Source: Octopus vulgaris (taxonomy: Eukaryota). From it: a stretch of 64,000 nucleotides of DNA. Shown here in pieces: positions 16,526 through 57,189 of the stretch; position 1 is the first letter of the stretch, and every line of letters begins with the position of its first letter. Position numbers and translations under genes: made by a program. The DNA lies in NCBI GenBank assembly GCA_951406725.2, contig OX597817.1:21080001-21144000 (forward strand), read 5' to 3'. The notes below the pieces were generated by a model, which was given only the letters and a program-made list of their open reading frames with translations, did not search any database and was not told the origin of the DNA.

Positions 16526-16726
16526 TATATATATATATATATATATATATATATATATATATATATTATTATTATTATTATTATTATTATTTATATTATA
16601 TTGAGGGTACTACTATTCGTAGATACCAACACGCTAAGAGGGACCAATGCGGTCAAAACTACTAAAAATAAACAAAATTTTACCGAATGCAAAACTTCAA
16701 AACACATCATTTTAAAAAAGAATTCA

Positions 16727-16790
16727 GTTACATATCACATGTGATTTCGCATTTAATGCAGAATATGCATTTCATGTTCATCAGTGCAAC
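16727..16790 (-). ncRNA. Type I hammerhead ribozyme (P1)
   Basis: GUUGCA-CUGAUGA-ACAU..AAUGCA UAUUC UGCAUU..AUGC-GAA-AUCACAUGUGAU-A-UGUAAC; palindromic stem III; AUA cleavage triplet; A10.1/C11.1 mismatch. Confidence 0.8.
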
Positions 16791-17222
16791 AAGCTCAAGA
16801 AATATAAGAGAAAACATAACATTACAAGCTCGATAGCCAACCGTAGAATTCGTCGTAGCATGTACGAATGTTTATCTTTACATATCTATGAAAATGGCGG
16901 GCTTATTCGCAATGCATTTCGGTACCAAATTGTCTAGTCGGAATAAAAATTCAGTATTGAAATATTCCGGTGAAAAATATAAATTAACAATTGAGGATAA
17001 AATCTTTAAAAGAAATTATCAGTAGTCAGCATGAAAAACCTCGTAAGAGAAAAATCCGTAAATTCTTCCTCTTTGAAAATATTCATTTATATTATATTGA
17101 GGGTACTACTATTCGTAGATACCAACACGCTAAGAGGGACCAATGCGGCCAAAACTACTAAAAATAAACAAAATGTTACCGAATGCAAAACTTCAAAACA
17201 CATCATTTTAAAAAAGAATTCA

Positions 17223-17286
17223 GTTACATATCACATGTGATTTCGCATTTAATGCAGAATATGCATTTCATGTTCATCAGTGCAAC
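17223..17286 (-). ncRNA. Type I hammerhead ribozyme (P1, second copy)
   Basis: Same sequence as 16727-16790. Confidence 0.8.
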
Positions 17287-53915: not shown

Positions 53916-55731
53916 AAGCTCCAAGAAAAAAGCACTTTTTTCGGATAAAACCAAGAACTTATACCTGGTAGATAACAGCAAATACACACAACTCTTACAC
54001 AACAGCATCATTAATAATTATACTAAGGCTAGGGCACAGACATATAACGAAATTAATAAAGAAGCTAGCGTCATCGCCGCTAAACTTAAATTAGATAAAA
54101 AAATAGAAACCCTCCCCAAAAAGAGGCCTTTATTACTATTAAAGACCACAAAGAAAACTTCCTTTCCAATCCTAAATGTAGGCTTATCAACCCAGCCAAG
54201 TCAGAACTAGGGATTATTAGCAAAGAAATTTTAGATAAAATAAATACGAAAATTAAGACCGATACTAGGCTAGTGCAATGGTCCAATAGTATAGAAGTCG
54301 TAGACTGGTTTAAAGCTATTAAGAATAAGAAAAAAGCGAGGTTTACACAATTCGATATTGTTGATTTTTATGCCTCTATCTCTAAAGAACTGCTAGATAA
54401 AGCCCTAATCTTCGCTAGTGACTTCATAGAAATTAGTACCAATGATAAGGATATAATCTTCCATGCTAGAAAGACATTACTTTTCAGTGAGAATGCAAAG
54501 TGGGTAAAAAACACCGACACGGAGGGCGCTTTCGATGTGAGCATGGGTTCATATGATGGGGCAGGCATCTGTGATCTAATTGGACTCTTTCTCCTAGATA
54601 CCTTCAGTAAGACATTCCCTAACGTACATTTCGCCATCTACAAAGATGATGCCCTCGCCTTAACAGCTAATACAAATGGACCAGCACAAGATCGTTTTAG
54701 GAAGGATATTATCCAGTTAATGAAACACTTCGGACTTAGTATAACTATAGACACTAACCTGACGGTTGTCAATTTCTTAGACGTTTCCTTAGATCTTAAT
54801 AATAATATTTATAAGCCTTATAGGAAGCCCAATGATAGACTAAGTTATATTAATGTAGGTTCATGCCATCCCCCTATAGTATTCAAAAATTTAGTTAAAA
54901 ATATTAGTAAGAGGATTTCTAGCCTCTCATCTAATGAGGACATCTTCAATAGCGTTGCCCCAGTTTATAATAAAGCTTTAAAAGATAGTGGTTTTAGCGA
55001 AAAAATAAAATATACACCTATCACCAGCCCAACAATAAAGAAAAGGAATAATAGAAATAGGAAGGTCATCTGGTTTTACGCCCCCTTACTCACCCGAGGT
55101 GGCCTTCAATATAGGTAAATATTTCCTAGCACTGATAGATAGACATTTTCCAGTTAACCATGCTTATAGGAAACTCTTCAATAGACACAATTTAAAAATT
55201 AGTTTTAGTTCAACTACCAATTTTAAAAACATAATCAATCATAACATACAAAAAACACAAGAAGAAAACAGCTGTTCATGCAGGAATAAAGAATTGTGCC
55301 CGCTAAATGGAGCTTGCATGTCCAAGACCATCATATATGAGGCTACCGTAAACTCTATAACCACTAAAGACACCGTTTTGACGAAGAAATACGTGGGCCT
55401 GACAGAGGGTAATTTCAAGGCCAGGTTCAATAACCACACTTTGAGCTTTAGGCACTGGAACAAAAGAAAAGCGACACAATTATCCAATCATATTTGGTCT
55501 TTAAGAGATAAAGGTGTCGATTATAACATACAATGGAAGATTTTGGCCAGATGTAAGCCCTATACTAACGGCAGCGGAAGGTGCGGTTTATGCGACATGG
55601 AGAGATGGCTTATCTGGAAAAGCAGCTTAGACCCTACCACATGTCTAAATACAAGGACAGAACTTTTCGGATCATGCCCACATGTGACTAAATTTCTGTT
55701 ACGTTTTTGGTCCCCTAAAGAAAACGGATAG
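53916..55731 (+). CDS. PLE RT + GIY-YIG, longer copy with frameshifts (~54120 and ~55075)
   Basis: Adds DKTKNLY, TIKDHKENF and RLINPAKSELG upstream; an extra T at ~55075 splits ORFs 54273-55118 and 55099-55731. Confidence 0.9.
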
Positions 55732-55926
55732 AACATGCTTTCTGTGTTATGTCCCAAGAAGATTTTATATATTTTTATATATTTTTATATATTTTTTATG
55801 TATTTTTATATAATTTTTATGACGAAAAATGCGAGCGATGTATAAGTACGCAGGCAAAGCAGAGTTATAACAGAGTAATTTCCCTTCATTTTTAACGGTA
55901 TTTTTTCATAACGTTTTCAAATAGCC

Positions 55927-55989
55927 AGATAACCGAAGAGATGGTGTTGTGGATTTCCACTTCGGCATCTGAAACTCAGAGTTTTATCT
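55927..55989 (+). ncRNA. Variant type I hammerhead ribozyme (PLE pLTR)
   Basis: AGAUAA-CCGAAGA-GAUG...CAUCU-GAA-ACUCAGAGU-U-UUAUCU; U4C core variant; GUU triplet; offset at the base of stem II. Confidence 0.6.
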
Positions 55990-57189
55990 TGACTACCGAG
56001 TAATGTAACATATTGTATAGATAAATTTCCTCTATTTACATAATATTGAGGTCTCTTTCTTTCTTTTGTTATCTTACCGTTTTATCAATATATATATATA
56101 TATATATATATTTATTATATTATATATATATTATATTGTATTACATATGTCACACACACTCACAATATTTCCCTTTGTTTCTGCATTGTGACTGTAAATT
56201 GTAAATGCGAAGTCCAGACAGGTCGGCTCTAGAATTAGATTAACATACCGATGAAATATTCCTTCTTTTATTATATATCATCCACAATTCGCAATTAATA
56301 AACTGAAAGCACATCTTCGAAACCGACGGAGACTCTACCACCACTGTGTAGTATATGAGTATAAGCGCCGTGTCAAAGACACAGGTCTATTTGATGTAAC
56401 AAAAATATATATTGAGCCATTGCTCATGTATTTAGTACAATGTCAGGGTCGGTGCTGTTCCAGCCATATGATTAGATAAAATCCATGTTGCGCTATCGAT
56501 TGCTCTACCGTACATATTCGTATCAAGATACTAATATCAGAATTCATTATGTTTTCATAGTATTGATTTCTATCATCGGTACTAGGCTACGAATTCATTG
56601 AGCATAGCAGTAGTCAATTTAATCTACTCCAGTATTTGACTGGTAATTATTTTATCGATCTCAGATATATAAAAGGCGCGCCAGAATAATAGCATAAGGC
56701 ATTCATTCTGGCGCTCCACTCTTTCTTCCACCCTGTTAACCTTTATATGTTATTAATATTACTTTGTAAGTGAGCAGCTGGGGTCATCGTTTCTTTCTTT
56801 GAGAGGTCGTTCCGTGAGAAGGAAATAATTCTATCGCAGCCATGTTTGTGCGGTATCCTTAATTCAGCAGTTGTTCACACTAGAGGTTATATGAACAGTC
56901 TATACTTCAAGATTTTACTTTAGCATTTTAGTTAGAAATCCGAACTCAATGTTTCTAAGCCAACCAAATGCAGAGAAAGACTGCAGTGGTTATATGCTTG
57001 ATATTCTGCTTCAAGCTTAACGTCTAGTCGCAGAGAAATACTTGGGGTCTTTTAGAGCGAAAATATCTTAAATTATTAATGTTGCTACATTTAATCAAAT
57101 AAAGACAATATCTCTTCCCACGCACAAAAGCACACACAGACACATACACAGACACATCTACACGCACAGACATACAAAAGAAATCGGTT

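Follow-up and report, generated by a model that had tools for sequence, protein, structure and literature searches.

Hammerhead motifs in a 64-kb octopus window lie in (TA)n-bounded insertions of predicted Hydra-type Penelope-like elements and of two protein-free tandem repeats

Introduction

The Hydra clade of Penelope-like elements (PLEs) is characterised by a reverse transcriptase (RT), a GIY-YIG endonuclease at the C-terminus and the motifs RWK, DKT, CxCX5C, CxxC and CxH (Craig et al. 2021, PMC8557442). Its members include Hydra-1_Obim (File S1), Penelope-n_HM and Penelope-n_NV, and Hydra PLEs often display U.U at positions 10.1-11.1 of their hammerheads, together with a palindromic stem III and a preference for (TA)n targets (PMC8557442, Files S1 and S2). 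Here we follow up a reading, made from the letters alone, of a 64,000-nucleotide stretch of the Octopus vulgaris genome (assembly GCA_951406725.2, contig OX597817.1, positions 21,080,001 to 21,144,000, forward strand; called the window below, with positions counted from its first letter), which had placed in it ten type I hammerhead ribozymes of six families, here A to F. We consider it probable that the window serves as a landing ground in (TA)n, holding the 5'-truncated ends of four coding Hydra-type PLEs (C, D, E and F) and copies of two tandem repeats without an open reading frame (ORF; A and B), that each family carries a predicted hammerhead of its own, and that A and B are likely copied in trans by Penelope-type enzymes.

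Like the Hydra clade, the coding families described here have (TA)n targets, a hammerhead in the pseudo-long terminal repeat (pLTR), partial tandems, 5' inversions and a tail at one end; unlike in the clade, where tails are 30–40 bp, they are about 65–155 nt here, and several families with thousands of copies coexist. Naiad PLEs share the (TA)n targets and the inverted and tandem insertions with a tail, but their endonuclease is N-terminal and a canonical hammerhead is absent (PMC8557442). Minimal PLE hammerheads, for which a pLTR location, a palindromic helix III and a dimer model have been described (Cervera and de la Pena 2014, PMC4209133), also occur as opposite-strand pairs 100–700 bp apart and in many families per genome, as here; the stem III palindromes of the octopus families are longer (8–12 nt), and family A lacks the G10.1-C11.1 pair. 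Besides, PLEs co-occur with non-LTR retrozymes and have been proposed as their mobilisers or their source (Cervera and de la Pena 2020, PMC7229834; Li, Clavereau and Pollet 2026, bioRxiv 10.64898/2026.07.22.740005). Publications already cover the Hydra clade with its hammerheads and (TA)n targeting, and what is new here are members of the Hydra-type PLEs and of the non-LTR retrozymes.

Ten hammerhead motifs in six insertions

All ten motifs were located in the window at the places named by the sequence-only reading, whose coordinates were motif ends; we give the C3 and H17 positions separately. A strict type I descriptor recovered four of the ten (B, D and E twice), with a null of 0.05 per window in 40 shuffles. 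A relaxed descriptor, tuned after the motifs had been inspected, which demands a palindromic stem III and tolerates, at the stem II foot, either a 1x1 mismatch or a single additional base, returned exactly these ten and no other, and 100 block-wise dinucleotide shuffles gave 0 hits; six of the ten needed the relaxed stem II. The observation of ten type I hammerhead motifs is confirmed, and the palindromic stem III claimed for each family was borne out as well. The Rfam scan that had been proposed as a check did not report them: cmscan of the window gave no hammerhead among 115 matches at E<=1, and these matches were dismissed as microsatellite-driven miRNA noise.

The B, D and E hammerheads are fully canonical (C3-A9, G12-A14, A15.1-U16.1, H17 and three stems). 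Families A and C have the type I core apart from A.C and U.U, respectively, at 10.1-11.1, and the G10.1-C11.1 pair is absent from A in 64/64 copies; the best tolerated mismatch at this place is U10.1-U11.1 (PMC3088659). Family F has U4C, in a CCGAAGA core, and one extra or bulged base. The sequence-only reading had noted the CCGAAGA core, and had mentioned neither A.C, nor U.U, nor the extra base. By self-comparison of the window, the ten motifs belong to six insertions, all of them with (TA)n at their bounds: a partial tandem in A, single copies in B and D, and inverted pairs in C, E and F, with C, D, E and F crowded into 48.4–56.1 kb. Blastn among the 3' regions of the six families found no mutual similarity.

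Two preferred ends and their pairing

All six families meet (TA)n at two preferred distances downstream of the ribozyme, a short and a long one, at approximately 151/253 nt in A, 160–183/293 in B, 110/195 in C, 61/217 in D, 38/162 in E and 44/111 in F. In all 73 classified inverted insertions, one end is long and the other short (A 20/20, B 8/8, C 6/6, D 6/6, E 16/16 and F 17/17), where independent ends would give about half. In this count, ends of A, B, D and E outside the two class windows were dropped, and four long ends of C, over-extended by BLAST, were reclassified by hand; the loci were best hits, first hits on contig C1 or picked opposed pairs, and the sample is not random. The two fixed ends were seen first and the pairing was tested afterwards, on the coding families too. 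A rerun with other references gave 81 inverted pairs, 69 of them long plus short and none long-long or short-short. Literature searches, with most subscription papers and Repbase outside their coverage, found no description of these families or of the end rule.

In five of the six families, opposite arms resemble each other more, on average, than separate insertions do, with two outliers in B. In the inverted insertions of the coding families the long-end arm reaches further 5' in 31/46 and the short-end arm in 11/46, and the latter cannot be explained by simple fold-back copying of the long arm. Two separate primings are the likely origin of the inverted insertions. Their overlapping arms differ from the twin priming on one linear RNA that Ostertag and Kazazian reportedly described for L1.

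Families C to F belong to coding elements

The family F insertion consists of two 5'-truncated copies, a left arm (52094..53915, minus strand) whose open RT-GIY-YIG frame ends at 52378 and which has a short end, and a longer right arm (53916..56087, plus strand) with split frames (54099-55118 and 55039-55731 among them) and a long end. The hammerheads, with stem III ACTCAGAGT, have C3/H17 at 52176/52126 (minus strand, CCGAAGA core) and 55933/55983 (plus strand). The element has a single ORF, with RT followed by a C-terminal GIY-YIG and a longest common frame of 717 aa, and tandem copies are spaced about 2.59 kb, which gives a unit below 3 kb. A motif scan of the protein found RWK, DKT, a CxCX5C linker, and CxxC and CxH beside the catalytic E and N, with CX2-5CxxC absent. 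Because these motifs match the definition in PMC8557442, we assign family F to the Hydra clade; a Naiad is excluded by the C-terminal endonuclease and the hammerhead. A Pfam search returned no family for the F ORF, and there were 1010 homologues at E<=1e-50, none named among the best 120. In a by-eye comparison, 28 of the first 44 residues of F match Hydra-1_Obim, whose hammerhead is unlike that of F, U4C being a feature of F. One Hydra hammerhead listed in File S2 of PMC8557442 shares the stem III of F. The same stem III is found at another locus (L165:2461-4641, minus strand), where an intact Hydra-type ORF of 727 aa, 44% identical to F, is accompanied by a pLTR hammerhead whose core has U4 and whose stem II has A.A at its foot.

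Identity is 99–100% in every one of the 87 scored genome matches of family F. Its core pattern has 4783 genome matches, with C4 in 93 of the first 100; the seven U4 (CTG-core) matches, all fetched, are diverged relatives (74–85% identical), and for this reason U4C is likely derived in the expanding F subfamily. The same seven sequences led us to reject CpG decay as the source of the CTG cores. U4C is a known natural hammerhead variant of reduced activity (PMC3088659). A pairing of CCGAAG with CUUCGG as a switch in F was also rejected, as the predicted fold holds stem II at 0.88.

Family C is represented by an inverted pair of 3' untranslated region (UTR) and pLTR ends (48398..50831; left end long, right end short) with hammerheads at C3/H17 48623/48589 (minus strand) and 50705/50739 (plus strand), and by an inverted fragment without hammerhead at 44605..44941. 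At three of nine extended loci (L163, L164 and L167), a Hydra-type ORF is joined to the hammerhead with continuous 95% identity, across an AT-rich 3' UTR of about 2.9 kb. The resulting unit of about 5.7 kb does not fit the limit of less than 3 kb given for Hydra units. At L167 the pLTR lies on both sides, with hammerhead and tail also preceding the start codon. Family E forms a short inverted pair of pLTR ends (51321..51704) with hammerheads at C3/H17 51550/51475 (minus strand) and 51596/51670 (plus strand), stem III being ACGAUCGU. At one locus (L173) the E endonuclease is joined to the hammerhead via 1.2 kb in common with another (L172), and at a third (L146) hammerhead and tail run into the start of a 500-aa open ORF. 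The C and E ORF pieces, taken from several loci, have RWK-like, DKT, CxCX5C, CxxC and CxH motifs, (TA)n targets and 33–40% identity to F.

Family D is present as a pLTR 3' end (50918..51282, minus strand) with a hammerhead at C3 51206 and H17 51135 (minus strand; stem III ACAUAUGU), and a decayed D-related remnant without intact hammerhead (16255..16520, minus strand) adjoins the family A insertion. At half of the loci (15/30), D-ORF sequence lies upstream with no (TA)n in between. The D ORF has CxxC and CxH and is 30–42% identical to F, C and E; as it is without the CxCX5C linker of the clade, we term it Hydra-like only. Despite this loss, D still ends in (TA)n. All four coding families (C, D, E and F) have the endonuclease at the C-terminus, and D and E ORFs (L175:1564-2991, minus strand; L173:1961-2992, plus strand) show a long Asn-rich insertion between the RT thumb and the endonuclease. 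An exchange of pLTRs between D and a Neptune-type PLE, suggested by one locus (L170, 75% over 189 nt), was rejected because a D-like hammerhead lies downstream at only 1/20 Neptune-type loci. Since copies of C, D and E elsewhere extend into ORFs, seven of the ten motifs (C, D, E and F) can be assigned as pLTR hammerheads of coding PLEs.

Families A and B are protein-free tandem units

Family A is present as 1.6 units of a 496-bp ORF-less tandem monomer (16585..17391, minus strand) with its short 3' end at (AAT)n(TA)n and two hammerheads (C3/H17 16784/16733 and 17280/17229, minus strand; stem III AUCACAUGUGAU), and as an inverted fragment without hammerhead (8012..8310; left end short, right end long). 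Family B is a 5'-truncated copy of a 535-bp ORF-less tandem monomer (24992..25406, plus strand) with a hammerhead at C3 25188 and H17 25257 (plus strand; stem III ACAAUUGU). This copy is flanked on both sides by a 47-nt unique stretch after (TA)n (24947-24994 and 25474-25521, two differences), which resembles a long target-site duplication. Such duplication as a general trait was rejected, having scored at 1/36 single-orientation A/B loci, that one in simple repeat.

Both units have a GC content of 31%, longest ATG frames of 69 aa (A) and 46 aa (B), and circular folding z values of -2.5 and -5.5. Exact core matches number 392 for A and 2157 for B genome-wide, with 0 for the reversed-pattern controls. 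Continuity with a PLE ORF was found in 0/30 hits of A and 0/30 of B (the first 30 of each on contig C1, several per array), and tblastn of A/B loci against nine PLE protein pieces gave nothing below E 0.7; five sampled A/B loci have Neptune-type fragments nearby, outside the element. Described metazoan non-LTR retrozymes are likewise ORF-less tandem units with one type I hammerhead each and a GC content below 45%, and their monomers measure 170–400 nt (PMC7229834), which A and B exceed. As this is the described range and not a mechanistic criterion, we file A and B, which carry three of the ten motifs, as oversized elements of the non-LTR retrozyme type. Unlike those retrozymes as described, A and B have long stem II insertions and the full PLE insertion footprint.

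Arrays reach 14 units in B and mostly one or two in A. Across 45 B units from eight arrays, the mean number of substitutions is 1.5 for units of one arm, 0.09 for opposite arms (two insertions) and 15.8 for separate insertions. Such homogeneity within arrays would be expected from repeated copying of one template, and equally from a homogeneous source array. Of 12 units in a 13-unit B arm (L239), 8 have T and 4 have C, interspersed, at one CpG-context position, and a GC-richer minisatellite of about 61 bp lies next to another B array (L177:3919-4566). None of the sequencing runs listed for B is an RNA run.

The end rule, common to coding and non-coding families, supports the view, which we consider likely, that PLE enzymes mobilise A and B in trans. 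A second candidate mobiliser is a young Neptune-type PLE (L256-L275) with a CX2-5CxxC linker, of which 150/150 scored matches are 95–100% identical and which reaches (TA)n about 290–370 nt past the query end in 15/20 loci.

Predicted folding and pairing

In monomers of all six families the predicted probability of stem III is at most 0.06, and self-duplexes of the palindromes are predicted at -6.4 to -15.8 kcal/mol. In these predictions an improbable monomer stem III and stable palindrome duplexes match the published dimer model. Compensatory changes in stems I, II and III occur between related families (E versus L169 and L174; B versus L059 and L063). Roughly ten more hammerhead families, their stem III again palindromic, were seen in the flanks of fetched loci (L036, L115, L129, L132, L168, L104, L216, L024, L171, L059, L063, L169 and L174), L171 having another CCGA core; by these motifs, the genome holds many more predicted hammerhead families than the six seen in the window.

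Origin of the insertions

The insertions end 40–290 nt past the cleavage site, so that the template would have to continue beyond the hammerhead, as an uncut tandem transcript or as a circle; a circular template has been proposed in PMC4209133. In the pathway that we favour, tandem transcripts would be cut at the hammerheads, probably as dimers via the palindromic stem III, and the PLE RT/GIY-YIG protein would bind the unit-length RNA, possibly circularised. The enzyme would then nick (TA)n, and reverse transcription would be primed at AU-rich sites lying 40–290 nt downstream of the point of cleavage. Each of the two target strands would prime on its own, one per fixed site, and this could yield partial tandems, long arrays and head-to-head arms.

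The sequence-only reading took the hammerheads to mark a mostly non-coding, retrozyme-like system alongside a Penelope/Naiad element, with one family having an ORF. Within the window this last statement holds, five of the six families being without an ORF and all lying in (TA)n, and taken alone it would suit six independent families of non-coding retrozymes. We find this scarcely credible, as C, D and E are continuous with RT/GIY-YIG ORFs at other loci, and the recurrence at independent loci makes nested insertion unlikely. The retrozyme-like label stands for A and B; C, D and E are, judged by this linkage, 5'-truncated ends of coding PLEs, and the coding element is of Hydra and not of Naiad type. 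In four of the six families the hammerhead belongs to the truncated 3' end of an autonomous PLE; the adverse outcome named beforehand was that this would hold for every family, and with PLEs already catalogued. The tie of the hammerheads to PLEs and to (TA)n is upheld by ORF linkage and (TA)n-bounded insertions, and mobilisation in trans was probably a correct guess, so that the earlier interpretation is partly supported.

Could A and B have grown at the DNA level, as satellite-like repeats enlarged by tandem duplication and fold-back, with hammerheads as passive relics? Recent local duplication would also yield homogeneous array units, an unequal crossover model is discussed in the preprint of Li and colleagues, and one haplotype is common to two loci (L240 and L241). 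We hold this to be very unlikely, since A and B occur dispersed on numerous contigs, their 3' ends being fixed at (TA)n and their 5' truncation variable, and obey the long/short rule of the coding PLEs. A less improbable, though still unlikely, explanation is that inverted insertions arise from one priming, the cDNA folding back and copying itself and the endonuclease trimming the second end, and that the hammerheads are dispensable passengers. It would suit the further 5' reach of the long-end arm in most coding-family insertions, the ascription of the tail to endonuclease-mediated resolution (PMC8557442, section 6), the formation of the same structures by Naiads without canonical hammerheads (PMC8557442), and the spread of F, the youngest family, despite its U4C core. 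The insertions whose short-end arm reaches further 5' are impossible by copying of the long arm, and core and pairing are kept in six unrelated families.

Several observations weigh against the landing-ground reading itself. In the rerun, 12/81 inverted pairs joined a long end to an end outside the class windows. No single full-length copy of E was found among the fetched loci, the D ORFs (L175 and others) are without the CxCX5C linker, and the D N-terminus was not seen. The active fold is predicted to cost 2.7–7.9 kcal/mol more than the minimum, and the predicted folds of A, C, D and F disfavour stem I or II. Helices are almost invariant within these families of young copies, so that the copies, with no covariation to show, speak neither for nor against the pairing, and the compensatory changes were seen only between related families picked by a pairing descriptor. 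Opposite arms differ by 11 and 30 bases in 2/9 B insertions. Finally, no partner PLE came to light for A and B, their 3' ends having no homology to those of C to F, and the abundant Neptune-type family also ends in (TA)n.

We tentatively propose, as a possibility that we would rate below even, that the one-long-one-short rule is the record of both nicked (TA)n strands priming at two programmed sites on ribozyme-processed RNA, either circular or dimer-paired. If true, two-site priming would link A and B directly with the enzymes of PLEs and account for the Penelope pLTR, tail and inversion in one step, and the active family F, with its derived U4C core, would become a natural test of whether the ribozyme matters. 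As the kinds of element are known, the window alone is unsurprising and is of value as material for tests, what PLE hammerheads do and how retrozymes are mobilised being still mostly inferred in the cited literature. One genome offers as an assay set a very young coding family, F, and two non-coding families, likewise young, that share its insertion footprint, together with natural core variants side by side (U4C, and A.C and U.U at 10.1-11.1); the end rule and the U4C family raise the case above routine annotation.

Other features of the window

A CR1/Jockey-type long interspersed element occupies 2953-7308 (minus strand), with an RT frame (2953-4641), an APE frame (4493-5761) and an upstream frame (6172-7308) that has a Myb/SANT-like hit and two CCCH-like repeats; a decayed relative (78%) lies at 60117-61678. 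A first family resembling short interspersed elements is found at 1933-2348, 13300-13720, 34258-35013 and 41628-41742, in partial tandems of 152–183 bp, and a second dispersed family of this kind at 20002-20414, 39307-39768 and 41131-41582.

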